DNA from: Candidatus Omnitrophota bacterium
GTDB lineage: Bacteria; Omnitrophota; Omnitrophia; Omnitrophales; Aquincolibacteriaceae
Length of the DNA: 64,000 bases
Direction of reading: 5' to 3'
NCBI GenBank assembly: GCA_022709525.1
Contig: JAKLIQ010000001.1
Location: forward strand, 338,679-402,678
Part shown: positions 1-23,082 of the stretch, one piece after another
Position numbering within the stretch: the stretch's first letter is position 1
How the letters are laid out: every line of letters starts with the position of its first letter
Made by a program: the position numbers and the translations under genes
Notes under the pieces: model-generated
Databases searched by the model: none
The model's input: the letters and a program-made list of their open reading frames with translations, nothing else
What the model was told of the DNA's origin: nothing

Positions 1-230
1 CGATGATCGGCCATCTGATCGGCGCCGCAGGGAGCGTTGAGCTCATCGCGACGCTTTTAGCCATGGAAAACCACCTGATCCCGCCCACCATCAACTACAC
101 GTCCAAGGACCCTGATTGCGATCTGGATTATGTTCCGAATGAGGCCCGCAAAGCCGATATCCGGATCGCGATGAAAAATTCCTTCGGGTTCGGCGGCAAA
201 AATTCGATCCTCATCTTAAAACGGGTGTAA
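1..230 (+). CDS. fabF: 3' end of beta-ketoacyl-ACP synthase II (partial; start lies upstream of the window)
   Basis: Translation ...[29 protein letters not shown]...[17 protein letters not shown] is the conserved C-terminus of KAS II (FabF). Frame is open from base 1, stop at 228-230. Confidence 0.8.
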
Positions 231-243
231 CCCATTTTAAGAT

Positions 244-404
244 AAAGGGACTCGTCGCTCGGGACTAGGGACTTGTTTGGGTTCCTGGTTTTTGCGAGTC
301 CCGCACTTGATCTCTTTAAAAATTTGAAAGATTATCAAGTGCTGCACTGGTTTCTGTCAAAAATTCAATGAAAACCAGGCGAGGAACTAGTCCCGAGTCC
401 CCTT
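244..404. repeat. Palindromic repeat element of the GGGACTCG/CGAGTCCC family, composite copy. Left module 247-302, right module 378-403, AT-rich core between them.
   Basis: aaaGGGACTCGtcgctCGGGACTAGggact...gCGAGTCCC at the left and gaggaaCTAGTCCCGAGTCCCc at the right are reverse complements. The element fills the convergent fabF/lpxA intergenic region. The same modules recur at 3008, 3424, 19032, 23002, 44557 and 46181. Confidence 0.75.
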
Positions 405-409
405 TAAAA

Positions 410-1261
410 TCAGGCGAGTTCTTCTTCGATCTCGGTATCGCTGGTTGCTGTCGTGCGGTTCTTGCGGTGGGAAAGTGTTTCTACTGCGGAGCCGTCGAGA
501 ATACCGCGCTTGGACGCTTCGATGAATTCCACCATGTGTGCGACTTCCGGGCTTTTGAGGGTTTTTTTGATCTCAAGCACCGCCTGGCTTACGTTCATCC
601 CCGAACGGTAAAGCAGCTTGTAAGCTTCCTTGATCTCGCCCCGCACCTGAGGCCCGATGCCGGCGCGGCGCATTCCCACCACGTTGATCCCCTGAGCGAC
701 GGCCGGCCGGCCGCCGCAGATCACATACGGGGGGATGTCTTTATTGATCGCCGATAAAGCGCTGACCATGGCGAGCGTGCCGATGCGCGTAAATTGATGA
801 AAACCGGTCATGCCGGAAAGAAAAGCCCTGTCCTCAACAACGCAGTGGCCGGTTAAAGAAGCCTGGTTGACCATGATGATGTGATTACCGAGATGACAGT
901 TGTGGGCGATGTGGCAATAAGCCATCAGGAAATTCGAGTCGCCGATCACGGTGGAAGTCCCTTCTTTGGTACCCCGATGGATCGTAACGAATTCGCGGAT
1001 CACGTTCTTGTTGCCGATCTTGGTAAAGGTCGGCTGTCCCTGGTAGGCGAGGTCCTGAGGGGCATGTCCGATGACGGCCTGCATATGGATCTCATTATAA
1101 TTTCCGATATCGGTTCCTTGGGCAAGATAGGCTCCCGCCATGATCTTGTTGTGGGAACCGATCTTGACCCCGTCTTCAATGATCACGTTCGGGCCGATCG
1201 TATTGCCAACCCCGATCCCGACGTTTTTCCCGATAATAGCGCTGGAATGGATTTCAGACAT
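410..1261 (-). CDS. lpxA: Acyl-ACP--UDP-N-acetylglucosamine O-acyltransferase (LpxA)
   Basis: Hexapeptide-repeat left-handed beta-helix sequence throughout (MSEIHSSAIIGKNVGIGVGNTIGPNVIIEDGVKIGSHNKIMAGAYL...). Length (about 284 aa) and the C-terminal helical domain are typical of LpxA. Start set at the MSEIH Met (1261) rather than the ORF-track start at 1405. Confidence 0.8.
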   Translation of the reverse strand: MSEIHSSAIIGKNVGIGVGNTIGPNVIIEDGVKIGSHNKIMAGAYLAQGTDIGNYNEIHMQAVIGHAPQDLAYQGQPTFTKIGNKNVIREFVTIHRGTKEGTSTVIGDSNFLMAYCHIAHNCHLGNHIIMVNQASLTGHCVVEDRAFLSGMTGFHQFTRIGTLAMVSALSAINKDIPPYVICGGRPAVAQGINVVGMRRAGIGPQVRGEIKEAYKLLYRSGMNVSQAVLEIKKTLKSPEVAHMVEFIEASKRGILDGSAVETLSHRKNRTTATSDTEIEEELA

Positions 1262-1394
1262 AGGGCGGATTATATCACAACCCAGACTAGAGACTGAAGA
1301 CCAAAGACTATTTGGCAATTCCCGCATTTTTCTATAGAACAAGTCGCAGAATTTCTCCCGACTTCTTCGTCGCCGTTCAAATTTTCCCAGCGAG

Positions 1395-1605
1395 AAAATT
1401 TTCACTCGCGCGCTCGACTTCGCTCGGCCCGTGAGATAGGTTCTGAGGGCACGTCTCGGAGCCGCTTAAAGCTTGGTTCCTGCTATAGGCAGGATTTAAG
1501 CGGCGAGAGCCGAGGCGTCATGGCGCCGCTGGAGTGCCGAAAGCGCCGTTGACCGAAGAGCTTATCTCACGGGCCACCGTGCCCGCTTCGCTTCGCGAGC
1601 GCGCC
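1395..1605. other. Long imperfect inverted repeat (about 210 bp) with nested sub-hairpins. Candidate structured RNA or regulatory palindrome; strand unknown.
   Basis: gcgcgctcgacttcgctcggcccgtgagata (1398-1431) pairs with tatctcacgggcc...gcttcgcttcgcgagcgcgc (1564-1604). Inner pair gccgcttaaa (1462-1471) with tttaagcggc (1495-1504). Lies in the divergent lpxA / giant-gene intergenic region. Confidence 0.4.
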
Positions 1606-1879
1606 TCTGAAGTCTGGAGAAATTTTTCTTTACTGCCTCTACAAATACCCGGGAATTGTCAGTAAAGACCAGAACAGAAGCAGGAAATGATTCCTGTTTT
1701 GTCGCCTTATGTCGTTTGTCTCACACTCTCAGACGATCCCTATGCTATATATTGCTAAAAATCGCTATATGTCTTAATGGTTAGTTTCATTTTCACTAAG
1801 GATGACAAAAATCAGAAGTTTGAGAAGAAAATACCCCTATGAAAAAATTGGAAAAAATGGACTTTTTTTCGAACCTCTC

Positions 1880-1908
1880 TTGCTTTACCCCCATGCATCA
1901 GTTATATT
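1880..1908 (+). promoter_or_regulatory. Candidate sigma70-type promoter for the giant ORF (TTGCTT-N17-TATATT)
   Basis: ttgctt at 1880-1885, 17-nt spacer, tatatt at 1903-1908, in an AT-rich region about 90 nt upstream of the 1999 ATG. Confidence 0.3.
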
Positions 1909-1998
1909 TTCGGCGACTTTTTTAAGACTAAGGAAAATGGGATAAAATCTCTTTCGAAATCAAGCGAAAAACCGGTCGAAAAAGGACGAAACAGCCGA

Positions 1999-4900
1999 AT
2001 GAATCAACGTAATCCATTCAAGACATATATTGCGGCGCTTACTGTTTTCGCTTTCTTTTTTACAAACCTCGGGATCACTCCGGACGCGTTAGCGGCGGCT
2101 TCGATGCCTACGCCTCGCAACATCTCCGGCAATCAAGCCGAAGTTTTGTTGCCCTACCAAGCCCGGCTTGATTCAAGCATCGGCTTTTCGATTCCCTCCG
2201 AACTTGGCTCCATCGAATATTTCAGGCCCGGAAAAGGCCCGGCGCTTATTCATATCCAGACCGCGCACGGGCATTACCAGGCCCAGAAACAGATCCAGCA
2301 GATCCTCCATCACCTTGATAAAAATTACGGTGTCAAAACCCTTTTCTTGGAAGGAAGCGGGTTTGAGCTGAATCCGGAGCTCATCCGTTTTTTCCCGGAC
2401 GATCATGCGCTTACTATGAAGGCCGCCGACGAGCTCACCAAACGCGCGCTTCTGAAAGGCCCTGAGCTCTTTTTGCTTGATAAGCTGTTCGAAAGCTCAC
2501 AAACAATCAAGCAAAAGACCACAGACCACAGACCGCAGACGACAGCTAAAGATTTTGGGCTCCAGTCTCCAGTCTCCAGTCTCCAGTCTTCCGAAGGCGT
2601 TCGCGCCTTCGGAATTGAGGAGCTTAAATCTTACCGCGAGAACGGCGTCGATTTTGTCAATGTCCTCGAAGCCAAACAAAAAACGCAGAATTTTCTCGCC
2701 GATATGGACATGGGGATCGAGCGTCTTTCCAGCCATTATCTTAATAAAGACCTCCGCGGTTTTCTCAAGCGCCTTGAGGCTTTTGAAAAAAATCAGATCC
2801 CGTTCGAGGATTGGCTTACCTATTTAAAAGGGGAGGCCGCCAAGCGCCTTGAGATGGACCTTTCGCAGGCCCAATATCAGATCGATTGGCCGATGATGGT
2901 CCGAATTTTCAAGATCCGCGAACTTACTTCTAAGCTGGACCGCCAGAAATTTTCAAAGGAGCGTGATGAGTTTTTAAAAACTATCAGGAAATATCTCTCC
3001 AAAAATTGGGACTCGCACCTCGGGACTCGTTCCTCGACGAGAAACCAAAACGAGTCCCTAGTCCCTAGTCCCGAGTCCCTTTATGGAGAAATCGAACGAT
3101 TACTTCGATCGGAGCAGGCAAGCGTCCAGCTTCCGGACCCTGAAACGAGTTTGCTGTTCGAAGACATGGTCCGCCAGCTTCCGGAAGATTTTGATTATGA
3201 AAAGTATCCCAACGTGCGTTATTTCATCGGCATGCTTCTTTTGCAAAGCGAACTAAAGGCGCAGATGCTCATGGAAGAAATGGATCGGTTGGTCGAAAAG
3301 ATCTCCGTCAAATTGGCCGACGCCCCGGAAGAGCAAAAACTTCTTGTCCTCTTAAAAGATTACCGCCTTCTCCAAAAACTTTTCGCGCTGGAACTTTTAC
3401 CGAAGGATTATGAAGCTATTATCGGGACTCGGGACTTGCACCTCGGGACTCGACTGAAACCCTCCAATATATGTGCTCGATTCAATGAAATCGGAAAGTG
3501 GCAAGCCGGAAACGAAAAAACGAGGAACTCAAACGAGCCCCTAGTCCCGAGTGACGAGTCCCGCGTGCGCCGGGTTGAATTTAAACATGTTGAAGATTTG
3601 GATGTATTATTCAATAAGGCGCTCGCATTCTACGCCGGCGTGAAGGAACGCGACCTCAAGATGGAGCAGCGGATCGAAGAGCGGCTCAAGGAAACGGGCG
3701 CTCAAAAAGCCGTGGTCATCACCGGCGGCTTTCATTCCCAGCCCTTTCGCGATCATTTTACGAACAAGGATTTTTCCTACGCTCTCATTTCTCCCAAATT
3801 GACCACGACTGACACAAAAGGCCGCGAAGAATATATCCAGAATACTTTACGTTTTACGCTTAAGTCGACAAAAGAGTCCGTTTATCCGGCAGATCCGGAG
3901 GTGCTCAGGCCTGAAAACCGCTATGGCTTGGATCAGGCCGCCATGCGTGCCGAGATCCGCCAAATCATCTCAGAAGTAGCCGGCCAACCTCAAACCAAAG
4001 ACCTGGAAGCCGCGCGAAAGCTTGTCGATAAAGCTTTTCAACAGGCGGCAAAAGAGGCAGGACTTCTTTACGATCCCCAAGTCGATGAAGCCGAGGCTCG
4101 TGACTTGGCCCAATGGCTTACCGTGACACCTAAAAATATTCCCTTCAGCCAGATCCTTCAGGACGTCCGCGATTGGTTTGCCGGCGCCGAAAGAAAACAA
4201 AAGTTAGAAAGCATTTCTGTTCCTACCCTTGATGTTCTTGCCACAGCCATTCCACAGGATGCCGGAAAAGGATCTGAAGCGGTTTCCCAATCGCGTGCGA
4301 CAGATCTTCAAAAAGAGCCGGAAGGGATGACCGCGCTCGACATCCTCAAAGGGATCGGCTTTGTTTTAGGCGTCAATGTCGCTTATCTAGGCGTCATTCT
4401 GATCATCGCGGCGATCCCCACCGTCATTGTGCTTACTTCAGCGGTGGCGCTTGGGGGTTATTTGGCCTACCAGGCCTTTCTTTGGGCCCAAGAAACATAC
4501 CAGAAGATCAGCGAAGGTATCCGTTCGCTTCCCCAAAATATAGCGGATAAAAAACAATCCCTGTCCCTAATGCTCAAAACGTGGAGTCAAATTTTCAAAC
4601 ATTTTTCCGCCGAGACGTCCGGCAAGTTCAATTACGACGAATTTGCGGAGCAGGTCCATAAAGAAAAGATCCGGATCGGACAACGGATCACGGTCTATCC
4701 CAAAAAAGGCGATCTGATCTCCGGCCGTTTCCATTATCTCAATAACGCGACCGGTTACTTATCCGTCTCGTCCGTTTCGACCGCGTCAGAACAGATTATC
4801 TCCCAGATCCACAAGGATGATATCGCGTTTATTGATGTCCCTCGCGATGTTACTCGCTCGGAAGCGAGAGTAGCCATAATGGTCATTAATGATGCTGTCT

Positions 4901-7900
4901 GGTTTGGGATGGATGCTGCATCGAAAGCGATTTCAATCGACGATTTAAAAGCCGCATTGCGTGAGTCTGATAGAGACTACATATCGGTGCAGCGTGACGG
5001 AGTTTGGCATTCCGTGTCTAAGGTTTTTGTCTACAGACATCTTAGATTTTATGAAAAAGACATTCAAAAAATTTCCAAAATCAAACAAAAAACGTTTGAA
5101 CCGGGAAAAAAGAAATTAATCCCTAAAAAAATTGCAGAAATTTTTCATCAGGCCCTTGCCGAACAATCAGATTTGACCGCTAAATTGATCGCAGCTATGG
5201 GAAGCGCTTATTCGCCCAAAACAGATGTCTTGAAGTCCAGGCGAGTTTCTTTGACAGAAATTTATAAAAATGCGATCGCAAAGCTCGAAAGGGAGCTCGC
5301 AAAGCTTGAGTCATCACTAACCTCTGAAGAGCGCTCTGCGGTTATAGATCGCATTGATGTTCATGTAAAAGTCGCAGGTTATGATGGCAAGCCTCGGGGA
5401 AATCCGCCTCATCGCACAGATTATAAAGTTGCTTTTGCGCTTCGTGACAAAAAAGAACCGCGCAAAACAAGTTCGATGGACGTCATCAATGAATTGTTCG
5501 CAGGTATAGATAATCATCATTATCCGGATCGTGATTTTTTATGGACGTTTTCTCAGGGTGGGCGATTGGGCGATGTTTATCGGCATGTGCGGGGGGAGCT
5601 TGCCTCGCGTCTTGAGTGGTTTGGACTGCTCCCCAACTCACTGTTCGGTTCCGATGAACGTTCTGTATATGTAAACAATGTTATCAATAACATTGAAGTA
5701 GATTTTACGATCCATGGTTTCGCATGGCCTAGCAACTACGCTTTGAATTATGAGGTATTTTTTGCACCTCGTTCCGAGGCGAGGGAATTTTCTGATGTGA
5801 AAACAACGCAAGAGCTCGGCGAATTCATGGCCCCCGTTATCGCGCAAGTCACGGAAAGGATTAAAACCTCCGAACCCTTTCAGGCGTCCAATATTTCAAA
5901 AAACTTGATCGAAGCAGGCCTCTACGACCCTTTGCCCGGCGACAAACAACACGCCTTTGAAGAATTAGGCAAGCAGGACACGCTTGATAAGACCGCTTAT
6001 TTCATGGGTCTCCAGATGTATTGGGCTATCGCCCGCGCTCCTGACCTTGAAAAAGCCAAAGAGCTTGCCGGGACTGTTGATGCCTATGCTCAATCCCGCT
6101 CCGAGGCGAGGAGTGCCGTGAATGAAGGGGCCATGCATGAAGCGGCTCGTAATATGGGTTATCAAGATTTAAAAGAGATCGCTGTTTCTCATGGCGAAAA
6201 TACCATTCCCAATATCGATGAATTTCTGGCCTATTTGAATACCTTTGAGACCGATCAAACGCAGGCGAGGGAAGAATGGTTTGTCAAATGGATTATGGAG
6301 TTCCGCATTATTGAAAAGCTAAAACAGTTCATTGGCGAACATGTCGCCAAGGGAGATGCAAAAGCTTTTGCTAAGGCGGAAGCAGCCTTTCAGGCATTGC
6401 AAAAAATCAATGCTACCGGACAAAGAATCCTGGCAAAGGCCAACCAAACGGCCCAAACGATCAGAACGCTCCAAGATCTGCATGCGATGCTTTCTGAGGC
6501 AAAAACCGCTATCTCAGAAGTTAAAGCCAGTTACCATTTGGAAGAAGAAGCTGGCCGCCAGGAATCCCGCTCGGAGATGAGGGTGAAGCGGACCGAGATG
6601 ATCCGGGACGTTTTATTTCGCGTGGGCATCGCCGTTCCTGTGGTCGCGATCGCCGGCGGTTTTGTCTATCTAGCTATTACTCACACCGCGCCCGTTTTTC
6701 TTTTTCAAGCTTCGTTGACGCTTCTGATCACCATGGGCTTTATCGCATTAGCAACGACATGGCTTAATCATCTTTTTGATCTGGTTCATCAAAAATTCCC
6801 GACTGAAAATCGAAGATTGTCAACGCCCGAAGTTTGGCTTATGGAAACGTTCGGCATCAAACTTAATTTCGGCCGTTTAAGCGGCCTTATAGGCCTGATG
6901 CTCCGGCCTTTAACTCCGTCTGTTTCGGCTCAAGATCAGAAACTTAAAAAACTGCCCGATCAAACCATGGGCGTCTGGCCATCGAATGAGGGAAAACCCC
7001 GTTTTGAAAATCACGATTTTTCCAAAAGAGCGCTACCAATCATTTTGGCAGGAGCGTTTGGCGCGACAGCTGCTTCTGCGCAACAAATCCAAATAACCTA
7101 TCCGCCAATGGACCCGCCTTATGGCGCCAACATGACACTGACTCATACCAATAAAGTCGCGCCGCAGGACGTTTGGGTCACCGCGTTCGCGTATTGGAAA
7201 ACCTCTCTTGTGGAAAGCACCGCCATTGTGACCACTAAGGTATATGATGCGCTTTTCAAGACGAACGATCCTTCTACGACAGTCTATTCAATCAAGCCGG
7301 CAATTTTTTCGAATGCTTCCCCAGTTTTTTTCTACGGCGATAAGTCAGAAACGCCCGTTGTTTCAGGTGGCAGCCTGCCTTCTACGGAAACAAATGTTCT
7401 TCCCAAAAACCCTTCCGCGGCAGACCTTTTAAAACTCCGAACAGACTTTGAACGTGAGCAAAAAGTTAAAGCGAAGGCGCTTGAAAAAAATCGTTCTGAA
7501 CTGAGGGGGAAATTTGCAAAATCGATAATCCTTGGCATTATCGCGTTAGCCGCTGGCTGCGCTACTGCTCCTGCGCCTTATGGTTATCGTCCCGCCGTTC
7601 CTTATGGCTATCCTTATAGTATCACTCCGAGCTGGAAACCGCCGGTTCCTAAAAGGATCAATATTCCAAAAGCGCCGCCCATGCCGCCGGCCGGGATCAA
7701 TATCCGGCCTCGGTCGGAGATCAGGACAACGGTCCGCATTGAAGTGCCGGAAGATGTTCCGCCGGAAAAGACCATCGCGCGATTTGTCCTCGATCAGTTG
7801 GGGAAACCGCTCAACGAGTCCGGAGACCAGGTTACTTTGGTCGATATCCTTCAAGGAAAAGCCATCCTTACCATTTTTACCAACACGGGAGAGTTTATTT

Positions 7901-10900
7901 TCGATCCCCGGGCACAGAGTCTCTCTGCGTTCAATCAGCCCGCCGGCGAGGCCTTGGCGATCGAATTCCAATTCCGTTCCGAGCTAAGAAATTTTCATGT
8001 TCAGGAAGTGAGACTCGATGTAGGCGATCTGAACAAACTTTCTGTCGAGGAAAGAGAAGAAGCTATTGCCAAAAAAATCAAAGATGGTAAGACCAGGATC
8101 TACCTTGGCACATCGATTGAGAACGATCGGTTGCAGTGGGATATGGATCGTGATATTTCCGCCGCGCATGGCCTTGTCAGGGACGCGCGAGTTTTAGCGG
8201 TCTCATTGCAGAAAATAGGAATTCCGGTCCATATGGAATTCCTTAAATTGCCCCTCGAGGTGCGGAACGATGGGACCTGGAGCTTCATCGAATATGACTA
8301 TTATTTTGCCGTTGGGGAAGATCACGCGGAAATATTAAAAAGATTTATTTTGCGTTTGCGGGCGTTGGCCAACGCTTCTACTCTGGGCGATCAAGGATAT
8401 GTAAGACTTCCCGAGGGCATTCTTACGGACGAAATAGAACGGTTTACCGAAGAATACATCGGCCGTTCGGAGACGAGAGCTCTTCCTTCCGTTGAAAAAT
8501 TGATCGGGAAAATAGAAGCGGCCTTGAAAGCCTTCGCGATTCTTTCTAAAACGATCGATAAAGGCGTGATTAATATGTGGGCTAAGGGCTTATATAAGAA
8601 CATGGAGCCTTGGGTGAGAGAGGCGTATGACGATTTGGTTAAATTGATTGGGGAAAAGGCCCAAAAAAGCGATGAACAAGGCGTTCGAGACGCCATCAAT
8701 CAGGTTGAAAAAATCTTTCTCGCCGAAAGGCGGTTCTTGAAGGCAATATTTGATTCAGTGCCAGAGGAGGAAGTATGGCTGTTCACTGAATTTATCGCAT
8801 TGATATGGGACGAACATTCCGACATAAGCAATGCTCTTGCGGACGCTTCGATGAAATTTGAGAAAAACAATTCCGCATTTTCCCTCGAGCTGTCGAACAA
8901 GGCTGATGATACCCGCCCCTCGCTTTCAGACGCGCAGGATCCGGATGATGGCCCGGCCCCGGCCAGCGCCGAACCCTCAACCGCCCCACGTTCCGAAATG
9001 AGGAGTTTACTTGTTGTACAAATGCCTACCACCATGCATCCGGAATTCGCCCTCTCAACTTTTATCATGAACGCTATGAAGGAACATAATTTAAAAAGGC
9101 AGGACGAACGGGGCAATATTTTATTTGAAATTTATGTCAATATGAGGGATGGTCAAAGAATGCTTTACACCGACTTCATTAAAAGCAAGCTTCATAGTTC
9201 CGATGAATTATCTGCGATCTATAATATTCAAAATATTGAATTTGTTTCGACTCCTTCCTTTCAGATCAACACTCCTAAAGATTTGCCGGAAGTGATTATT
9301 GCGCTCGAAAAAGACGCAGAAAAATTGAACAATTTACCGATGGCCGCCTGGAAATCATTGAAGGATGAAGTCTTAAGCCACGCTGAAATTTTCTTAAATA
9401 TCGCTGAAAATTTAGCTGGAACCGATCTTGAGCGTAAAGAGCGGCAAGTAGTTTTTTTACAGATCTTAAAAGGCATTCAAACAATGATCGCATTACCTTT
9501 TCTTGCGGATCAAGAAGACACAAAAGCCAAAAAGATGGCTCAGCGGATTACAAATCTTTGGTTCTTAATTGGCGATGAACTTGAACAAGCGCGTTTGGAC
9601 GGGATAAAGAAGGCCGCCGAAAAACGATACGGCCGGCCAATTGATGTTAAAAAATTAAAAAATGAAATGGGTTCCGCCCATGTTGCATTTGACAAAACCT
9701 CCAACACGCTAGAAGTCGAAGATCTGCCTACTGATATTTGGAGCCCTTATCCGGCGGACCGTATGGTCTCCACTTATCTTAGCCCCGCCATTCTCAGGCA
9801 TCTGCTCGAAGGCTTATCTTTATCCGTGGATGTTGCTGGCGACATGGTACTTCCTTCGAAAGTGGGTTCCATCTCCATTCAGAAATTAGAAGTTCTTATT
9901 AAAGAAGCGATTGATAAAACGGTAGAAGATAAGGCGAAAAAGGATGGAATCGGTGACCCCTCAAAAATTGAGAAGCTCAAAGCTGATCCAGTTGCTAGAT
10001 TTAACGCGCTAGTCAAATTAGAAAATGATGTTCGAAAAAGTCCGGACGAAGCCATTCGAGTCATGCACAGCCAGGGTGTTACAACGATCACCGAAGCTGT
10101 CTTTGTGGAATTTATGGGGGATTTTCTCGCGGCCATGCTGCTGTTAAAGACAGCTCAAAATTGGCAGTTTAAAAAAGAAGGGTTTGAGGCAAATCACGTA
10201 CTTCTTGAAAATATCCAGAAAACCTTGAGTCTTTCTCAGATTGGGCTCGAGGACATCGCTCTTCGGCTTGTTTCCCTTAATATTCCCCTAAATATCATCG
10301 AGCAGGTCATTCAAGGAAAGATGAACAACCTCGAAAAATTTGAGGCTCAAGGAAATGTGATCGTTATGAAGGGCGGGGTCGTAGAGGTTTTAGCTGCAGG
10401 CGGAAAAGCTGCTCGGTGGCGTTCTTCACTAGTGCCATTATTAAAAAATAAAATCATCGAGGATGACGTGGCGGCTAACCGCAATGATCTTCCGCGAGCC
10501 CTTGCGGCTTATTGGTACGGGGATTTTAGTTCCGGAGGCGGCACAGGGATATCACTCGCGATGGATAATCTTACTCATTTAGCGCAACGAGGTTACCCCG
10601 TTCGACTTGCGTATATTTTAAGCCCGCATACATGGCGTACCTTTATGGAAGCAACATACGGGCTTCTGAAAAGATATAACCAGAAAAAAGCAGTTAAAGT
10701 TCCTGTGGAAGCCATCGCCCAAAATACCAGCAGAGCTTGGGTGATCGCAGGAGACGAGATCAAGGAAGAAGATAGAAATGTGCTGGGACATGGGGATGTC
10801 ATGGGAGTGGTTTTTGCCGCCATCCAGGGATTAAAAAATGGGCAGGTTTATGCTATTCCTCGTTCAGCGGACGGACCGACAGCCCAGCTTGGACAGAAGC

Positions 10901-13900
10901 AATTTGAGAGGATTTTGGGATTTATGGCAACCAATACCGTGGCCCATGTTGGTATTGGGAATTGGAGAAATCTTGGTCAGGCAGGGGGAGGATTTGTCAC
11001 CGTCCAAGGACAGCCTGATATTGTTGATACAGCCATTCCAAAAAAAGAAAATGAAAAAAACGGATTTTTAGCTGATCGAGATATTAATCTGTTTTCAACT
11101 TTTATTAATGTTCTGAATTATGCAACCCTTCTTTACGCGATCTCCGACAATATTACAATTGAAGACCAACCGCTTATCTCATGGGATGAGGTGCAGTCTG
11201 TTTCAAGGATGGAAGAAAGTTCAATGACGATTTTGAAACAGCGTTTGGCAAAACTCAGCATTGAACAAGAGCAGGAGATCGTTCGTAATTTTATGAATCT
11301 TTTGCCTTCGGAATATGTTTTAAAGTCGGAAGATGTTCCGAAAGAGGAAGGTTCGAAAGAGTTTGTAAAGAAAGAATTTATACAATGGGAACAAATTAGC
11401 GGAATGTGGCATGGCGCAATTGAAAAAAGAATAAAGGAACGACATGCTCAAGAGAGAGTCCCCGTGCAATGGTCTAAGCCTCTAAGCTATGCAAATGCAG
11501 ATATAAGCTTAAGAGAATTTTCCATTCTTACTCAGCGAGGCGTTCAGGAGTCCGTTCCGTTATTTGCAGAGGTAAAGTCTGTTGTGGATTTATATGCTTT
11601 TCAGCCGCTTGTGCAGAAAGGAATAAAAATTTTAGCGGATAAAGATGTTTTAAGTTCAGAAGTCGGGCAGGATGCCGTGCGGCCTTCCAAGGGTATGGTT
11701 TTAAGAATCAATTCCGAGACTGCCGCGCGACAGCAACTTGCTTCTTTTGCCGCTAAGGGGGCACAGGTCTATTTGGGAAAAAATTTGGTATTTGAAAAAG
11801 GAGCTGAGCTCATTATTACCATCAAGGATTTTCATCGAGGCGTTAGCCTTAAAATAGGCGATAACGCGACATTTTATGGTGACGTTTTATTGCATCTTAA
11901 AGGAGGAGCAGTTGTTGATATTGATAGCGGCGCACAGGTTGGCAGCCCCCTTCTTTCCAGATTAAGATTAACGCTCGAAGATGGCTATTGGCTTCACATT
12001 GAAAGAGAAGCCATGCAAAAAATACTAGAAATGCTGGAACAGAAAGACAAAAAGATTGGAACTGAAAAAGTTGTTGAGCAATACAAAGATTTTGTAACCA
12101 CTAATTTTTTAAGCAAGGCTCGATTTGTTCGACTTCTCGTTGATGCTCTTGCAAATAGTAAAGAGATTAATGAGAATCTGAGAAAAAATGCTGAAGAGGC
12201 AGCTAGGGGAATTGATGTATTTGAAAAAAGGTCGGAACCAAATGCTCGCGCGGAAATGCGGACGCAGCAGGAAGAAGTGCCGGCGGAAGTGGCGCGCCTG
12301 ATCGATGGCGAGATCGTGCCGAAACTGGAGAGGCAGGCGGGCATTATCGAAAGTTTCAAGTCCGGAGAAACCAGTATTGCGAACCTGGCGGTAACCTTTG
12401 ATAAATCGCGTTTACGCGGGATAGCGGGTGAAGTCTATCAAAAGATCTCCAATGCCATTCCGCAGGGGAGCAGCGTTTCAGCCCAAAGTCTTTTTAGTTT
12501 CTTCTATTCGGCCCGTTCAGAAGACGAACATCATCTCGCGGCGCTTTATGCGGCCAATTTAGCCGAAGATAACGACCGTTTGGAGGTCCTTAATTCCGAA
12601 AGGCGGATCCTCTCCCAGGAGCCCATCAATTCAACGATCCTTGCGAGAAAAGAATTCGCCGAAGCTTACGCCAAAAAACTTTTCCTTCTCTTCTCCCACA
12701 ACGCCAAGGGGGAAAGCATTGCGTCAGCCATATACCGCGTTCTTCAGCGCTACGAAATGATAACCCCCGTGAACGTAAGCGCTCGGGACGTTGAGATCGT
12801 CGTTTTAGCTAACCTTCTTCGAAATATGCTTACACCCCAGCAGCTTGAAAAGGTAGCCTGGGACACCCTTATGGAAGAAGCGAGCGCTCTTTTCAACGAG
12901 ATCCAGCGGGTCACTTTCAATTGGAGCGATCTTTCGGCCGAAGCCAAACGCTCGGAAGTCCGGGATACGATTTATGAAGAGGTAAATGACCGGGCGAAAG
13001 AGATCGTAAATATTATTCGTGGGATCGAACAAAATGGGGAACTTAAATCTGTTGAACCCATCCAGCAACACGTGATGGCGCTGCAATCACTTTTTTTAAA
13101 CGGCAACCGGGGTGAGGATATAGCCCGGCAGTTGAGGTCGAAAGCCCCAGCCCTTTCCATCGGCGGTCTTGAACAGATCGCAGGTTATATGACCGCAGCC
13201 TGGCTTTTAGCCAGTTTTTTTGATGAACAGCTTAGAGTATGGCAAGGAAATGAGGACGTAAGACGTGATTGGCATTCCGTTTCCACTCGCGAAGTTCCCG
13301 ATCTTATAAAAGGCATCAACTACGCGTTTGTTCACGGGAAGGTTTTTAAGACTTTTGATTGGATGTCCTCCTTAAATGCAGATAGTTATGACCATGATAA
13401 AGCCATGAAATTTTTCTATAACGCGTTAGTGGAATGGGGGATCGTTGCGCCTTTTTCTTTCCAAAACGCGAAAGGCATTGTCAGGCCTGAATCCATTGTT
13501 TTTTCTCTTTTAAGTTCGGATCATATTTCCACTTTTTCTCAGAAAAAGTTCTTTGAAGAATTAAACGGGCGCTTGGCCAGTCCGTACTTTCCGTTAAAGG
13601 ATTCTGTCAAATTGTGGGTACGCACGCCTCGACCGGAAGCGCCTTACGCTTTTGAAGTGTTGACTCTAAAGACGTCATCTTTTGTTGATTCTGGAACCGA
13701 AATATCGCCGGTGAAATTTTTTGAACAAGCTATCAGTCAGTTGAAGACCAAGCAAATTAATGATATTAAAGACCTCAATGAATTGCTTGCTCGCGTGATG
13801 CGTGTTGGGATTGTCTATGCCGGCCGGTCGGAATTGAGGGAATCAGCAATTTCAAAACAGACCACAGATCAAAAATCACAGACTGTAGCTCAACTTTCAA

Positions 13901-14721
13901 GATTTGGCTCTCAATCCTCGGAATGGGTGGGAGGAGAAGCGGCTTCGATGCTTCCTAAAATCCAGAATTCCCTTTATCCAAGTTATAGTGAAGTTCAAAC
14001 GGACGTTATGGTGATCCGTCAGCTTTATCAGGAAGAATATCTTTATAAAAAAATTGTCAGATATTTTCGCTCCGGCATCATTCCGTTAAAACTTTGGAGC
14101 GCCCTCCGGAAGGCGGGCGCGCTTGGCAGGACCGTGATCGAACGCATCGCCGGTATTTCTTTCGCGGATGCAGCGAAAACCGGATCGGCCGTTCACGAAG
14201 CTACTTTGGCCGATCTGCCAAAGTCGTTCAAAGAATATCATAGGTTCAACCTGGCTCAAGGCGTCTTGCTTTCGATGGATAAGGGAAAGATCGCCGATGG
14301 CTTGATTTTCAGCCGGAAGTTCGCTTTTAGTCGCGGCGCAATCGCGGCAGCTCGTACGGTCTTAGGCGATGTCCCCTTGGCGATGGTGAAGGCCGGTATG
14401 AGCGCGAGGGAAATCCAATTTGTCGAAAATCTTAACCTTCAGTTTAAAAAAGCCGGGCGCAAACAGGCCGAAATTTTTCTCGCTGAGACACCCGAACAAG
14501 CATTGCAGTATCTGCGGGCGAACAAAGCAACCCGTCTGAGGGCGCTTTTTGACGAGAGCGAGGAGAACGATTCTCTGGCTATAGCCCTTAAAAACCAGCT
14601 GCCGGATATCCAATTCGTCAGTAATGCCGAGTTCCAGAGCTTCCTCGGCTACGCCGGCACCGAGATCCAGAAACTGGTCGCCAATGTCCAAGGCCAGTTC
14701 GCCATCCGTAGAGCTGCGTAA
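1999..14721 (+). CDS. Giant secreted/membrane-associated protein of unknown function (4240 aa)
   Basis: One stop-free reading frame of 12,723 nt. N-terminal signal-peptide-like segment (KTYIAALTVFAFFFTNLGITPDALAAA). Hydrophobic helix clusters near aa 800-850 and 1535-1600. Pro/Tyr-rich segment with an internal lipobox-like LAAGC near aa 1840-1890. Recurrent RSExR motif. Coiled-coil-like stretches. No recognisable catalytic motif. In-frame palindromic repeat insertions at 2521-2612, 3008-3079 and 3424-3562. Confidence 0.85.
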   Translation: MNQRNPFKTYIAALTVFAFFFTNLGITPDALAAASMPTPRNISGNQAEVLLPYQARLDSSIGFSIPSELGSIEYFRPGKGPALIHIQTAHGHYQAQKQIQQILHHLDKNYGVKTLFLEGSGFELNPELIRFFPDDHALTMKAADELTKRALLKGPELFLLDKLFESSQTIKQKTTDHRPQTTAKDFGLQSPVSSLQSSEGVRAFGIEELKSYRENGVDFVNVLEAKQKTQNFLADMDMGIERLSSHYLNKDLRGFLKRLEAFEKNQIPFEDWLTYLKGEAAKRLEMDLSQAQYQIDWPMMVRIFKIRELTSKLDRQKFSKERDEFLKTIRKYLSKNWDSHLGTRSSTRNQNESLVPSPESLYGEIERLLRSEQASVQLPDPETSLLFEDMVRQLPEDFDYEKYPNVRYFIGMLLLQSELKAQMLMEEMDRLVEKISVKLADAPEEQKLLVLLKDYRLLQKLFALELLPKDYEAIIGTRDLHLGTRLKPSNICARFNEIGKWQAGNEKTRNSNEPLVPSDESRVRRVEFKHVEDLDVLFNKALAFYAGVKERDLKMEQRIEERLKETGAQKAVVITGGFHSQPFRDHFTNKDFSYALISPKLTTTDTKGREEYIQNTLRFTLKSTKESVYPADPEVLRPENRYGLDQAAMRAEIRQIISEVAGQPQTKDLEAARKLVDKAFQQAAKEAGLLYDPQVDEAEARDLAQWLTVTPKNIPFSQILQDVRDWFAGAERKQKLESISVPTLDVLATAIPQDAGKGSEAVSQSRATDLQKEPEGMTALDILKGIGFVLGVNVAYLGVILIIAAIPTVIVLTSAVALGGYLAYQAFLWAQETYQKISEGIRSLPQNIADKKQSLSLMLKTWSQIFKHFSAETSGKFNYDEFAEQVHKEKIRIGQRITVYPKKGDLISGRFHYLNNATGYLSVSSVSTASEQIISQIHKDDIAFIDVPRDVTRSEARVAIMVINDAVWFGMDAASKAISIDDLKAALRESDRDYISVQRDGVWHSVSKVFVYRHLRFYEKDIQKISKIKQKTFEPGKKKLIPKKIAEIFHQALAEQSDLTAKLIAAMGSAYSPKTDVLKSRRVSLTEIYKNAIAKLERELAKLESSLTSEERSAVIDRIDVHVKVAGYDGKPRGNPPHRTDYKVAFALRDKKEPRKTSSMDVINELFAGIDNHHYPDRDFLWTFSQGGRLGDVYRHVRGELASRLEWFGLLPNSLFGSDERSVYVNNVINNIEVDFTIHGFAWPSNYALNYEVFFAPRSEAREFSDVKTTQELGEFMAPVIAQVTERIKTSEPFQASNISKNLIEAGLYDPLPGDKQHAFEELGKQDTLDKTAYFMGLQMYWAIARAPDLEKAKELAGTVDAYAQSRSEARSAVNEGAMHEAARNMGYQDLKEIAVSHGENTIPNIDEFLAYLNTFETDQTQAREEWFVKWIMEFRIIEKLKQFIGEHVAKGDAKAFAKAEAAFQALQKINATGQRILAKANQTAQTIRTLQDLHAMLSEAKTAISEVKASYHLEEEAGRQESRSEMRVKRTEMIRDVLFRVGIAVPVVAIAGGFVYLAITHTAPVFLFQASLTLLITMGFIALATTWLNHLFDLVHQKFPTENRRLSTPEVWLMETFGIKLNFGRLSGLIGLMLRPLTPSVSAQDQKLKKLPDQTMGVWPSNEGKPRFENHDFSKRALPIILAGAFGATAASAQQIQITYPPMDPPYGANMTLTHTNKVAPQDVWVTAFAYWKTSLVESTAIVTTKVYDALFKTNDPSTTVYSIKPAIFSNASPVFFYGDKSETPVVSGGSLPSTETNVLPKNPSAADLLKLRTDFEREQKVKAKALEKNRSELRGKFAKSIILGIIALAAGCATAPAPYGYRPAVPYGYPYSITPSWKPPVPKRINIPKAPPMPPAGINIRPRSEIRTTVRIEVPEDVPPEKTIARFVLDQLGKPLNESGDQVTLVDILQGKAILTIFTNTGEFIFDPRAQSLSAFNQPAGEALAIEFQFRSELRNFHVQEVRLDVGDLNKLSVEEREEAIAKKIKDGKTRIYLGTSIENDRLQWDMDRDISAAHGLVRDARVLAVSLQKIGIPVHMEFLKLPLEVRNDGTWSFIEYDYYFAVGEDHAEILKRFILRLRALANASTLGDQGYVRLPEGILTDEIERFTEEYIGRSETRALPSVEKLIGKIEAALKAFAILSKTIDKGVINMWAKGLYKNMEPWVREAYDDLVKLIGEKAQKSDEQGVRDAINQVEKIFLAERRFLKAIFDSVPEEEVWLFTEFIALIWDEHSDISNALADASMKFEKNNSAFSLELSNKADDTRPSLSDAQDPDDGPAPASAEPSTAPRSEMRSLLVVQMPTTMHPEFALSTFIMNAMKEHNLKRQDERGNILFEIYVNMRDGQRMLYTDFIKSKLHSSDELSAIYNIQNIEFVSTPSFQINTPKDLPEVIIALEKDAEKLNNLPMAAWKSLKDEVLSHAEIFLNIAENLAGTDLERKERQVVFLQILKGIQTMIALPFLADQEDTKAKKMAQRITNLWFLIGDELEQARLDGIKKAAEKRYGRPIDVKKLKNEMGSAHVAFDKTSNTLEVEDLPTDIWSPYPADRMVSTYLSPAILRHLLEGLSLSVDVAGDMVLPSKVGSISIQKLEVLIKEAIDKTVEDKAKKDGIGDPSKIEKLKADPVARFNALVKLENDVRKSPDEAIRVMHSQGVTTITEAVFVEFMGDFLAAMLLLKTAQNWQFKKEGFEANHVLLENIQKTLSLSQIGLEDIALRLVSLNIPLNIIEQVIQGKMNNLEKFEAQGNVIVMKGGVVEVLAAGGKAARWRSSLVPLLKNKIIEDDVAANRNDLPRALAAYWYGDFSSGGGTGISLAMDNLTHLAQRGYPVRLAYILSPHTWRTFMEATYGLLKRYNQKKAVKVPVEAIAQNTSRAWVIAGDEIKEEDRNVLGHGDVMGVVFAAIQGLKNGQVYAIPRSADGPTAQLGQKQFERILGFMATNTVAHVGIGNWRNLGQAGGGFVTVQGQPDIVDTAIPKKENEKNGFLADRDINLFSTFINVLNYATLLYAISDNITIEDQPLISWDEVQSVSRMEESSMTILKQRLAKLSIEQEQEIVRNFMNLLPSEYVLKSEDVPKEEGSKEFVKKEFIQWEQISGMWHGAIEKRIKERHAQERVPVQWSKPLSYANADISLREFSILTQRGVQESVPLFAEVKSVVDLYAFQPLVQKGIKILADKDVLSSEVGQDAVRPSKGMVLRINSETAARQQLASFAAKGAQVYLGKNLVFEKGAELIITIKDFHRGVSLKIGDNATFYGDVLLHLKGGAVVDIDSGAQVGSPLLSRLRLTLEDGYWLHIEREAMQKILEMLEQKDKKIGTEKVVEQYKDFVTTNFLSKARFVRLLVDALANSKEINENLRKNAEEAARGIDVFEKRSEPNARAEMRTQQEEVPAEVARLIDGEIVPKLERQAGIIESFKSGETSIANLAVTFDKSRLRGIAGEVYQKISNAIPQGSSVSAQSLFSFFYSARSEDEHHLAALYAANLAEDNDRLEVLNSERRILSQEPINSTILARKEFAEAYAKKLFLLFSHNAKGESIASAIYRVLQRYEMITPVNVSARDVEIVVLANLLRNMLTPQQLEKVAWDTLMEEASALFNEIQRVTFNWSDLSAEAKRSEVRDTIYEEVNDRAKEIVNIIRGIEQNGELKSVEPIQQHVMALQSLFLNGNRGEDIARQLRSKAPALSIGGLEQIAGYMTAAWLLASFFDEQLRVWQGNEDVRRDWHSVSTREVPDLIKGINYAFVHGKVFKTFDWMSSLNADSYDHDKAMKFFYNALVEWGIVAPFSFQNAKGIVRPESIVFSLLSSDHISTFSQKKFFEELNGRLASPYFPLKDSVKLWVRTPRPEAPYAFEVLTLKTSSFVDSGTEISPVKFFEQAISQLKTKQINDIKDLNELLARVMRVGIVYAGRSELRESAISKQTTDQKSQTVAQLSRFGSQSSEWVGGEAASMLPKIQNSLYPSYSEVQTDVMVIRQLYQEEYLYKKIVRYFRSGIIPLKLWSALRKAGALGRTVIERIAGISFADAAKTGSAVHEATLADLPKSFKEYHRFNLAQGVLLSMDKGKIADGLIFSRKFAFSRGAIAAARTVLGDVPLAMVKAGMSAREIQFVENLNLQFKKAGRKQAEIFLAETPEQALQYLRANKATRLRALFDESEENDSLAIALKNQLPDIQFVSNAEFQSFLGYAGTEIQKLVANVQGQFAIRRAA
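2521..2612. repeat. Heptamer tandem repeats (CAGACCA-type, then CCAGTCT x4) followed by a perfect 9-bp-arm palindrome, in frame inside the giant ORF
   Basis: ccacagaccacagaccgcagacgacagc ... ccagtctccagtctccagtctccagtct ... ccgaaggcg-ttc-gcgccttcgg. Encodes QTTDHRPQTTAKDFGLQSPVSSLQSSEGVRAFG. Homologous peptides and DNA occur at 13855-13925 and 18975-19058. Confidence 0.7.
3008..3079. repeat. GGGACTCG/CGAGTCCC nested-palindrome element inserted in frame in the giant ORF
   Basis: GGGACTCGcacctcGGGACTCGttcctcgacgagaaaccaaaaCGAGTCCCTAGTCCCTAGTCCCGAGTCCC. Same architecture as the intergenic copy at 23002-23075. Translated as GTRSSTRNQNESLVPSPES with no stop. Confidence 0.8.
3424..3562. repeat. 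GGGACTCG/CGAGTCCC element, larger copy with a 65-nt core, in frame in the giant ORF
   Basis: GGGACTCGGGACTtgcacctcGGGACTCG ... 65 nt ... cgaggaactcaaacgagcccCTAGTCCCGAGtgaCGAGTCCC. Translated as GTRDLHLGTRLKPSN...NSNEPLVPSDESRV. Confidence 0.8.
13855..13925. repeat. CAGACCA-family heptamer repeat copy, in frame near the C-terminal third of the giant ORF
   Basis: cagaccacagatcaaaaatcacagactgtagctcaactttcaagatttggctctcaatcctcg encodes QTTDQKSQTVAQLSRFGSQSS, parallel to the copies at 2521 and 18975. Confidence 0.55.
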
Positions 14722-14732
14722 CGATAAAGCAG

Positions 14733-14850
14733 TAGGTAGTAAGTAGTAGATGGTAGGTGGCAGACGGTGTGGCAAAGTCCGTTTTGCGCTTTGTTCACCA
14801 CATACTGCTTACCACATACTACCTACCAGTTTTTACTTCTCTCTTTCGAC
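14733..14850 (+). terminator. Long imperfect hairpin made of GTAG/CTAC repeats followed by a T-rich tract. Candidate terminator of the giant gene.
   Basis: gtaggtagtaagtagtagatggtaggtgg (14733-14760) is complementary to ccacatactgcttaccacatactacctac (14798-14827). Perfect 10-bp outer stem gtaggtagta/tactacctac. Downstream agtttttacttctctctttcg. Confidence 0.4.
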
Positions 14851-14908
14851 TTTCCTAGCTAGAATACCCCCAAATCTTCTAACCCTTTTCCAACTTGGGA
14901 CTTAGAGA

Positions 14909-16126
14909 ATGTTTCCATCCGTCAGCGAACAGCTAGGGGTCTTTAAGGAGAATCTGGTCGAGCTCATTTCGGAAAAAGAGCTTGTCACGAAACTCGAAGC
15001 TTCCTGTAAGAAAAATAAACCCCTTCGCATCAAATACGGGGCCGATCCCTCGGCGCCGGATCTCCATCTCGGGCATACCGTGCCGCTCCGTAAGCTTCGT
15101 CAATTGCAGGACCTCGGGCATACGGTCGTTTTCATCATTGGTGATTTTACGGCGCGGATCGGCGATCCCTCAGGGAAATCCGAAACCCGGCCCATGCTTA
15201 CCGAAGAACAGGTCCAAGCGAACGCTAAAACCTACCAGGAACAGGTATTCCGCATCCTCGATAAGAAAAAAACCGAAGTTCGCTATAATTCCGAATGGCT
15301 CGGCGCGATGCGGCCGGAGGATTTCTTAAAGCTTACCGCCCAATACACAGTGGCCCGGATCCTCGAGCGGGATGATTTCAGCAAACGTTACAAGGCCGGT
15401 CATCCGATAGCGCTCGTCGAATTTCTTTACCCGCTGCTTCAAGGTCATGATTCCGTGGAGATCGAATCAGATGTCGAGCTCGGGGGGACGGACCAGATGT
15501 TCAACCTTTTGGTGGGGCGCGAACTCCAAAAAGCGGATGGTCAGGAGTCGCAGGTTGTTATGACGCTTCCTTTGATCGAAGGGCTGGATGGCGTTCAAAA
15601 AATGTCCAAAAGCCTCGGCAATCATATCAGCCTGAAAGATACGCCGCGCGAAATGTTCGGCAAGGTCATGTCGATCCCGGATATCATGATGGAGCGCTAT
15701 TACCGCTATACGGCGGCGCTTCCGGTTAAAGAAGTCGAGTCGATCCTTGCGGGTCTGAAAAAAGGCGAGTTTCATCCGCGGGAAATGAAAGCCAAACTTG
15801 CCGAGCGTATCGTCTCGCTTTTCCATTCCGAAAAAGAGGGAAAAGAAGCGCGCGAAGAATTCGACGAGATCTTCAAGAACAAAGGCCTGCCGGATGAAGT
15901 CCCTACCGTCAAGATCAAGGAAAAGACGATCGATATCGTGAGTCTGCTTGTCGCCGCGCAGCTTGTGACAAGCAAATCCGAAGCCCGGCGCCTCATGGAA
16001 CAGGGCGGTGTCAAGATCGGCCACGAGAAGATCACGGACCCGAAATCGGTCATTACGATCGGCGATCCTTTCGTCCTGCAATGCGGTAAGCGCAAGTTTG
16101 CCCGCATTGAAAGTTATAGTGCTTAA
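14909..16126 (+). CDS. tyrS: Tyrosine--tRNA ligase
   Basis: Class I HIGH motif ([11 protein letters not shown]) and KMSKS motif (KMSKSLGN). 405 aa with a C-terminal S4-like region. Confidence 0.9.
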
Positions 16127-23001: not shown

Positions 23002-23082
23002 GGGACTCGGGACTAGTTCCTCGGGACTCGAAAACGAGGAACCAAACGAGTCCCTAGTCCCGAGGGGCGAGTCCCGGTTTTT
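23002..23082. repeat. GGGACTCG/CGAGTCCC nested-palindrome element, compact intergenic copy with a trailing T-run. Likely acts as terminator after the PNP gene.
   Basis: GGGACTCGGGACTAGttcctcGGGACTCGaaaacgaggaaccaaaCGAGTCCCTAGTCCCGAGgggCGAGTCCCggttttt. Confidence 0.8.

Follow-up and report, generated by a model that had tools for sequence, protein, structure and literature searches.

A recurrent R-S-E-x-R pentapeptide marks module borders in giant proteins of Candidatus Omnitrophota and is a candidate polyprotein processing site

Introduction

The MARTX toxins of Vibrio and its relatives are giant proteins with conserved termini and strain-variable effector modules, which are cleaved at short inter-module sites and exchanged by recombination. 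An internal cysteine protease domain (CPD), activated by inositol hexakisphosphate, cuts MARTX after leucine in loose linkers, and viral polyproteins also encode a protease in the same chain. Here, we analyze a 64,000-nt stretch of a Candidatus Omnitrophota genome (contig JAKLIQ010000001.1, positions 338,679–402,678; hereafter, the window), in which one giant gene encodes the pentapeptide R-S-E-x-R again and again in the same frame. We conclude that the motif has certainly been selected at the level of the protein, as a signal that marks boundaries in a family of modular proteins.

Giant proteins have been described from the Omnitrophota as "Archaeovorins" or "multi-enzyme metabolic clusters" (West-Roberts et al., 2023, preprint 10.1101/2023.11.21.568195; 2026 preprint, 10.64898/2026.06.07.730766). 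The published examples are >10,000–30,000 amino acids (aa) long, and no boundary motif is reported for them; both preprints leave undecided whether the product is a single chain or is cleaved, and one of the two states that the cleavage points were not known, which blocked structure prediction. The window protein and its family share with these proteins their origin in Omnitrophota, a signal peptide, transmembrane segments and, in the relatives, unrelated enzyme domains (phosphoglucomutase [PGM], glutamate dehydrogenase [GDH], triose-phosphate isomerase [TIM] and hexokinase). Signal peptide, transmembrane helices, HEAT repeats and enzymes of sugar metabolism (PGM, hexokinase, starch synthase) likewise lie along one open reading frame (ORF) in the published giants. 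The window protein differs from them in its 4,240 aa and its lack of a Pfam domain, and it belongs to a subfamily set by its N-terminal domain (N-domain), its motif and its C-terminal tail. A full-text literature search found nothing on the motif, nor any report that connects Omnitrophota with polyproteins.

Results

The motif recurs as a peptide in one reading frame

The giant protein is encoded by a single unbroken ORF (Table 1) and had no match in Pfam or NCBIfam. A regular-expression scan found 11 RSExR and two RAExR copies in frame, compared with 0.07 RSExR expected from the composition of the protein and a maximum of two after shuffling (n = 5,000). RSE.R is also its commonest gapped pentamer, with 11 copies against three for the runner-up. 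The remaining five frames contain four copies altogether over the whole window, and none of the other 42 likely genes, which total 14,969 aa, encodes RSExR; RAEYR occurs twice among them. Other frames and genes are at the level of chance. Within the window, the compositional effect named in the original prediction as its refutation did not materialize, and the absence of the motif noted there for the housekeeping genes was borne out for RSExR. All nine occurrences that had been listed, as "at least nine" copies, are present and in frame; eight are exact and one (12247) is the variant RAEMR, but the listing was incomplete and missed RSELR at 7492 and 7975, RSEVR at 12949 and the variant RAEIR at 3946. 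The accompanying description of a fixed 16-nt DNA motif failed: the consensus as written fits only four sites, and the regularity is therefore that of a peptide rather than of a fixed DNA word. Self-complementarity of the DNA (ctcg...cgag) was found only where x is encoded by GCG and is not accompanied by covariation across 383 sites.

The motif is conserved throughout a large protein family

Searching for homologues brought up 92 proteins, 2,343–7,406 aa long, and all those with a named source are from metagenome-assembled genomes (MAGs) of Candidatus Omnitrophota; among relatives with a source name or a record title, almost all are from Omnitrophota MAGs and the rest from unclassified "uncultured bacterium" MAGs. 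The 92 homologues (409,499 aa) contain 691 RSExR copies where ~9 are expected. Only the first ~650 aa are common to all relatives, a subset also has the C-terminal ~250 aa, and the middle ~3,300 aa of the window protein are almost without detectable relatives. A profile of the N-domain matched 9,632 representative clusters (50% identity) among 1.84 billion, 6,282 of them at E ≤ 1e-30. The domain was located at residues ~1–550 in all 150 matches listed, and no bridge to annotated families was found among these 150. A scan of one genome per species gave 197 loci, for which all classified titles are Omnitrophota and several genomes have more than one locus. This very large family is not covered by Pfam and NCBIfam. 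It has a four-part architecture: a signal peptide, the ~600-aa N-domain, a variable payload separated by motif copies and an [AS]-A C terminus. Payload domains recognized in relatives are PGM, GDH, TIM, hexokinase, PutA, glycogen synthase, branching enzyme, histidine kinases and HEAT repeats.

The family consensus is R-[S>A]-E-[LVAMIT]-R, with R1, E3 and R5 essentially invariant. Position 2 is Ser in 702 copies and Ala in 197, and RAExR makes up ~20% of the family sites. The protein flanks carry ≤0.3 bit; small residues are slightly favored ahead of the motif and acidic ones behind it. Motif density in the fetched loci was 2.46 per 1,000 aa in family ORFs and 0.12 in other ORF-like stretches; the few non-family stretches with several copies are partial neighboring family genes, and the motif was absent from large neighboring ORFs of these loci that lack the family C-terminal tail. 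The N-domain itself is nearly free of the motif (three sites in the first 500 aa versus 1,403 elsewhere in 200 proteins), and the first copy usually falls at aa 560–720, right behind this domain.

Some lineages use other versions of the site. P0036 has RAEVR 24 times and never RSExR, P0046 has R[NPK]ELR, and P0070, P0042 and P0040 have RxE[ML]R. The most distant clade (P0056, P0071, P0072, P0076, P0082 and P0085; loci L062, L073, L074 and L080) has an unrelated peptide, [AG]xSLG. The first copy directly follows the N-domain in every one of these lineages, and paralogues within one genome are uniform in motif type. Lineage-specific variants are as expected for a site that co-evolves with its enzyme; this pattern fits either the N-domain or a trans-acting factor as that enzyme and does not tell which.

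Sites are paired at a spacing of exactly 20 aa more often than expected (14 pairs; e.g., P0031 1521–1541 and 2720–2740; P0041 2384–2404 and 2875–2895; P0028 2229–2269; P0036 2479–2500). They delimit mini-modules such as RSEQR-QVAQKLAVQDQQDSA-RSELR and RSELR-LDTHVSRQQELFGTG-RSELR, which may be released peptides or merely double sites.

Motif copies coincide with module borders and cassette junctions

A Pfam scan of eight relatives placed no site within any domain envelope, where ~10 would be expected by our own arithmetic from site densities; the domains and their nearest sites are given in Table 1. The junctions of the TIM module of P0024 resemble natural termini, starting ...PRAA-RSEAR-SQGERELFVGGNWKM... 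and ending ...LVGGASLKSDKFVSIVRSVRAA-RSEAR-M.... Low-identity high-scoring segment pairs (HSPs) between family members include 136 internal sites versus 407 expected, and 31% of internal HSP ends (≥50% identity) lie within 5 aa of a site versus 5% expected. In alignments that do cross a site (pairs with <40% identity), the four fixed motif positions are 50–55% identical and the flanks 15–25%. Both sites modeled with AlphaFold2 (AF2) are in, or adjoin, a low-confidence linker.

One pair of nearly identical genes shows a change at the motif. The DNA of P0019 and P0020 is 99.5% identical apart from an 810-nt (270-aa) in-frame block that only P0020 has. This block is bounded by CGT TCC GAA ATG CGG (RSEMR) and CGC GCC GAA ATG CGG (RAEMR), which have the 11-nt direct repeat CCGAAATGCGG in common, and P0019 retains one hybrid motif copy (L083:4400–4480 and L084:4400–5290). 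The difference is a recent gain or loss of a cassette at the motif, and motif copies thus act as in-frame junctions of cassette gain and loss. Such a role fits the block-wise homology within the family and the unrelated payloads at syntenic loci.

Export signals begin at the motif in a minority of modules

Simple regular expressions were used to locate targeting signals downstream of 1,419 sites. Signals of the twin-arginine translocation (Tat) type begin after 10 sites, compared with 0.08% of other positions (p = 5e-7), and lipoprotein signals begin after five (p = 0.006). In the window protein, RSELR at aa 1832 is followed by GKFAKSIILGIIALAAG/C, which heads a 73-aa Pro/Tyr-rich module ending at the next motif. 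Equivalent lipoprotein signals follow RSEMR in P0003 (...GLVAVGLTLAVSGLVG/C) and RSELR in P0010 (VRSVIQRVTIFAAVAAMAGLVG/C), and P0011 and P0015 have the same arrangement. Tat signals follow RSEVR in P0034 (AIDRRAFLGAAAGAAALLGLG) and RSESR in P0120 (FLKRRDFISLTALAGAVAFVS), with others after the motif in P0124 (twice), P0163, P0033 and P0117. A Tat substrate folds in the cytoplasm and is then recognized by its N-terminal signal; modules that begin with such a signal would therefore behave as separate pre-proteins with an N terminus at or near the motif. A signal peptide after every site was considered and rejected, as hydropathy averaged over all sites is featureless and only a minority of modules is affected.

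Several family members repeat this small Pro/Tyr-rich module of lipoprotein type (...AAGC-ATAPAPYGYRPAVPYGYPYS...) immediately behind a motif copy, with instances at window positions 7507–7710 (aa 1837–1904), P0010 ~1225–1270 and P0011 ~1061–1100.

Codon choice is biased at three motif positions

Codon use was compared with background at 384 sites from about 75 loci (the window and loci L001–L082). E3 and R5 codons are at background frequency, as is Leu at x, for which both CTN and TTR are used. R1 is CGY in 86% of sites versus 43% in the background, and AGR in 2% versus 24%; S2 is TCN in 96% versus 69%. The third base of x4 is usually G, with GCG accounting for 74% of Ala codons versus 34%. 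A contextual or GC origin of this bias was rejected because non-motif Arg-Ser and Ala/Val/Thr-Arg dipeptides of the same genes do not show it and because it holds at GC contents of third codon positions (GC3) from 0.41 to 0.65. The S2 bias can be explained by toggling between Ser (TCN) and Ala (GCN), as AGY is unreachable by single steps. In the [AG]xSLG clade codons are unconstrained (Ser AGY eight, TCN eight).

The DNA flanks of the motif carry ≤0.2 bit, and no base-pair-type covariation between synonymous positions was detected at 383 sites. Several nucleic acid functions were considered and rejected. An RNA element received no support from Rfam, which gave no family in window positions 1–16000, or from pairing covariation. 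For internal translation starts, Met is not enriched after the motif and x is NTG in only ~38% of copies; the E3 codon is at background (GAA 66%), and GGAG is therefore not selected at the motif. A dispersed DNA repeat, whether of the repetitive extragenic palindromic (REP) or miniature inverted-repeat transposable element (MITE) type or like integron attC, is at odds with the unconserved flanks, the confinement to a single frame of a single gene and the absence of palindromy covariation.

The window does contain a dispersed palindromic repeat of another sequence, whose units are GGGACT[CA]G or its complement; the 8-mer occurs 29 times where 3.1 occurrences are expected. It is mostly intergenic, at 247–401, 3008–3079, 3424–3562, 19037–19058, 23002–23075, 44557–44599 and 46196–46268. 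Two clusters lie in frame within the N-domain of the giant gene, where HLGTR...NES.VPS.ES corresponds to low-confidence AF2 loops, and relatives have similar peptides at other positions. The repeat looks like a REP/MITE-like element able to insert in frame, as Rickettsia palindromic elements do.

The conserved terminal regions

The N-terminal segment of the window protein was assigned by inspection as a probable Sec signal; the family consensus of this segment terminates in AFAA. In the N-domain that follows, the alignment gave H90, E118-G119, E207, R551 and G576-G-F-H579 as invariant residues, and H90, E118-G119 and G576-G-F-H579 do not vary among 21 diverse members. The AF2 model (mean predicted local distance difference test [pLDDT] 76.7, good core) has a small alpha/beta core that is interrupted by a helical insertion of ~350 aa. 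Neither Foldseek nor profile searches with the N-domain gave a match in the PDB. Scanning 31 members singly yielded sub-threshold Pfam hits only, all on the GGFH strand, to PF04187 (ChaN, "Tiki superfamily"), PF18950, PF18934, PF05139 (erythromycin esterase) and PF01963 (TraB/PrgY/GumN); the best whole-sequence hit, at E = 0.0016 and 18.9 bits, was below the gathering cut-off of 27.7 for PF04187. The likeness to the Tiki/TraB/PrgY/ChaN/erythromycin-esterase superfamily lies in an ordered His...Glu...Gly-x-x-His on the ends of beta strands (H90, E118 and GGFH579), an equivalence read by eye rather than from a computed alignment, and the scores below gathering and the insertion in the core set the N-domain apart from it. 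That the N-domain is possibly a Tiki-superfamily hydrolase is a lead, not a result. Since this superfamily comprises esterases and haem-binding proteins besides proteases, belonging to it would not in itself demonstrate protease activity.

The C-terminal module has a Rossmann-like alpha/beta fold (AF2 residues 170–340 confident) with no significant match in the PDB, and a motif copy precedes it where relatives align. The window protein ends ...FAIRRAA-COOH (14704–14718, aa 4236–4240); 150 of 201 family proteins end in Ala, the last two residues being AA in 68, SA in 60 and MA in 10. An amphipathic helix precedes the conserved tail, and proteins without the tail look truncated at contig ends. 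The tail is possibly an ssrA-/Tsp-like degron, a PDZ ligand or a secretion signal. A cut just before R1, which would create an [AS]-A C terminus at each site, was rejected because [AS]A precedes only 6% of sites (4-fold enriched), a weak resemblance.

Genomic slot and other features

The giant gene is flanked by lpxA and tyrS; an ABC transporter with an auxiliary protein and DUF4340 comes next. The same slot is occupied in four relatives (L001, L002, L083 and L084), with different payloads; between genomes, the alignable parts are the N-domain (58% identity to P0001) and the C-terminal domain (36%), and the payload is unrelated. Tandem family genes are present at L026/L071 (contig JBAYGD010000013.1), L009, L040 and L073, where a partial upstream giant ORF with the tail ..AA or ..SA stands directly before the next N-domain, and several genomes have three or four paralogues of the family. 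At L069:4529–16178 the family ORF seems to change frame after ~2,100 aa, with a second stop-free stretch from 10717 that contains five motif copies; this may be a frameshift (a sequencing error or programmed) or a separate gene. The topology of the window protein derived from hydropathy and the positive-inside rule was contradictory and was abandoned.

Table 1. Features of the window and domains of relatives with their nearest motif copies. Positions are nucleotides of the window or, where marked aa, residues of the protein named
Feature	Position	Strand	Remarks
Conserved slot (lpxA, giant gene, tyrS)	410–1405 (-), 1999–14721 (+), 14909–16126 (+)		
Giant ORF, 4,240 aa	1999–14721	+	Unannotated Candidatus Omnitrophota family of giant modular proteins; homology search
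Signal-peptide-like N-terminal segment, MNQRNPFK-TYIAALTVFAFFFTNLGI-TPDALA/AAS	1999–2100	+	Read from sequence; model helix 6–25
Conserved N-domain, aa ~60–620	2176–3858	+	BLAST coverage map, alignment, AF2 model
RAEIR, aa 650	3946–3960	+	First site, directly after N-domain; starts helix after low-confidence loop 621–644 (AF2)
Hydrophobic stretch, aa 782–824	4342–4470	+	Probably transmembrane hairpin; hydropathy scan
RSEAR, aa 953	4855–4869	+	
RSEAR, aa 1258	5770–5784	+	
RSEAR, aa 1367	6097–6111	+	
RSEMR, aa 1524	6568–6582	+	Followed by basic stretch and two transmembrane helices
Hydrophobic stretch, aa 1537–1589	6607–6765	+	Probably two transmembrane helices, starting 9 aa past RSEMR; hydropathy scan
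RSELR, aa 1832	7492–7506	+	
Lipoprotein-type signal peptide, GKFAKSIILGIIALAAG/C	7507–7560	+	Directly after RSELR, aa 1832
RSEIR, aa 1905	7711–7725	+	
RSELR, aa 1993	7975–7989	+	
RSETR, aa 2156	8464–8478	+	
RSEMR, aa 2331	8989–9003	+	
RAEMR, aa 3417	12247–12261	+	Ser-to-Ala variant
RSEVR, aa 3651	12949–12963	+	
RSELR, aa 3943	13825–13839	+	Last site, just upstream of conserved C-terminal domain; region of low pLDDT; aligned site in relatives
Conserved C-terminal module, aa ~3990–4240	13966–14718	+	Homology to 13 relatives, AF2 model
P0024 TIM	aa 1172–1432		Sites 1160, 1437
P0047 PutA (PutA_N to Aldedh)	aa 1815–2993		Sites 1802, 2999
P0061 hexokinase	ends aa 3031		Site 3037
P0061 LysM	ends aa 2469		Site 2471
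P0052 branching enzyme (GlgB)	aa 3162–3798		Sites 3120, 3814
P0011 glycogen synthase	aa 3324–3745		Sites 3272, 3845

Discussion

The family context makes sense of the motif. With a probability that we put at roughly 0.6, R-[S/A]-E-[aliphatic]-R is an endoprotease cleavage site at which a giant Omnitrophota polyprotein is separated into proteins that function independently. Polyprotein processing is suggested because the modules have natural termini, a strict site stands in variable linkers, lineages have their own variants, export signals follow the site and some sites lie close to the C terminus. The gene would be translated as a single chain of signal peptide, N-domain, variable cargo string and C-terminal module, and the chain would be cut at each motif; enzymes without signals would remain in the cytoplasm, and modules headed by a Tat, Sec or lipoprotein signal or by a membrane anchor would be exported or inserted. 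Since every module has the same short flank, motif copies would also be junctions for in-frame gain, loss and shuffling of cassettes, and such shuffling would explain the unrelated payloads at orthologous loci. This role in recombination probably exists, but as a secondary one. As the only universal module, the N-domain is the first candidate for the protease, and its His...Glu...His signature and weak Tiki/ChaN/TraB-type matches are compatible with such a role.

Several observations weigh against processing by a protease. The Sec-type signal predicts a periplasmic N-domain, whereas the Tat signals that follow the motif point to cleavage on the cytoplasmic side, and such a location argues against the N-domain as the enzyme that cuts there. 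Cleavage, its compartment and the enzyme are what we infer rather than what has been observed directly, and no protease family was recognized in the window protein by Pfam or NCBIfam, the hits of the N-domain being sub-threshold only. A site that served proteolysis alone would not be expected to show the synonymous-codon bias at R1, S2 and x4. Recognizable targeting signals follow only ~1% of sites, most modules have no recognizable function, and of those sites that an alignment spans, about half lack a conserved counterpart in the aligned sequence.

The original prediction offered a short linear protein motif or a small DNA repeat colonizing the gene. The former is well supported by conservation at the amino acid level in thousands of relatives, by the module borders and by the N-terminal targeting signals that follow, but a protein motif need not be cut. 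It could be a linker or docking motif that one shared partner recognizes (for instance a chaperone, a scaffold, part of a secretion apparatus or the protein's own N- or C-terminal domain), or a structural cap in a membrane-tethered multi-enzyme complex. Enrichment, border position and lineage variants would suit any sequence-specific recognition, the first site begins a predicted helix, the conserved terminal modules could be the partners, and the literature treats these proteins as single multi-enzyme polypeptides. We nevertheless regard an uncleaved motif as rather unlikely: Tat and lipoprotein signals are expected to function only at a free N terminus, whole enzymes with natural termini are separated from the site by a spacer of just 2–16 residues, as in processed polyproteins, and in seven proteins a site lies 5–12 aa from the C terminus, where nothing is left to tether.

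A primarily DNA-level function, in which ~15 nt of CGY TCS GAR NYG MGR are a recombination site (by microhomology or site-specific) for in-frame cassettes and the peptide is a tolerated by-product, appears improbable. What survives of the DNA-repeat idea is the role in cassette gain and loss, with indel junctions in the 11-nt direct repeat of two motif copies, homology blocks that terminate on the motif and unrelated payloads at syntenic lpxA-giant-tyrS loci, together with a synonymous bias at R1, S2 and x4 that neither dipeptide context nor GC3 accounts for. Any repeated motif can be expected to recombine as a side effect, however, and R5 and E3 codons at background, Leu at x from both CTN and TTR and frequent Ser-to-Ala changes point to selection on R, E and R as amino acids. 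The [AG]xSLG clade keeps the same architecture with a different peptide and unconstrained codons, the motif is restricted to one strand and frame, and no flank conservation, inverted copies or associated recombinase was found in the neighborhoods seen. The codon preferences (R1 CGY, S2 TCS and x4 NNG, with R5 and E3 free) might instead reflect separation during translation without a protease, by 2A/StopGo skipping or other recoding that depends partly on the decoding tRNAs, and the later modules could then be released in the cytoplasm even with a periplasmic N-domain. We consider it very improbable, as the motif is unlike the 2A consensus D-x-E-x-N-P-G-P, the uninformative flanks leave no conserved upstream nascent segment, no arrangement of Shine-Dalgarno sequence plus start codon is selected (E3 GAA 66%, as background; NTG ~38%) and no Rfam element was found. 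To our knowledge, no 2A/StopGo-type mechanism is known in bacteria.

If proteolytic processing does occur, these genes could tentatively be described as "protein-level operons", in which dozens of ordinary proteins, among them enzymes of central metabolism and proteins exported by way of Tat, Sec or lipoprotein signals, are carried as in-frame cassettes and released at a lineage-specific pentapeptide that doubles as a recombination junction. Their logic might then, again with some doubt, resemble that of an integron but within a reading frame, and it would provide an in silico rule for cutting Omnitrophota giants into real products. Giant ORFs are a hallmark of the Omnitrophota, and the boundary motif offers a concrete, testable answer to the question of single chain or cleavage. 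It predicts exact termini for hundreds of products per genome, for which existing metaproteomes can be searched again as neo-termini, and it explains implausible predicted localizations along the chain, in that each module can have its own targeting signal. Confirmed cleavage would be a rare cellular use of a virus-like polyprotein strategy for housekeeping proteins, with built-in cassette exchange.

By analogy, the closest functional counterparts are the MARTX toxins and viral polyproteins. The family resembles MARTX in combining conserved terminal regions with a variable string of modules in a giant bacterial protein. It differs in its strict pentapeptide, in the absence of a CPD or RTX repeats from the Pfam and NCBIfam results for the window protein, and in a cargo made up in part of ordinary housekeeping enzymes and of exported proteins that bring their own Tat, Sec or lipoprotein signal. 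With the polyproteins of positive-strand RNA viruses (3C/3CL, NIa) it shares one ORF containing many complete proteins and, between them, a short and strict recognition sequence that covaries with lineage, but here the setting is cellular, at a chromosomal lpxA-tyrS locus, no chymotrypsin- or papain-like protease domain was recognized and cleavage is deduced. Cyanobactin and other precursors of ribosomally synthesized and post-translationally modified peptides (RiPPs) also flank hypervariable cassettes with short recognition sequences in one precursor, although their products are peptides of 6–20 residues cut by the subtilisin-like PatA/PatG, and the modules here are folded proteins of 70 to >1,000 aa. 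What is new is a putative recognition-site polyprotein in an unexpected setting: the bacterium is free-living or predatory, and the proteins concerned are housekeeping and exported ones.

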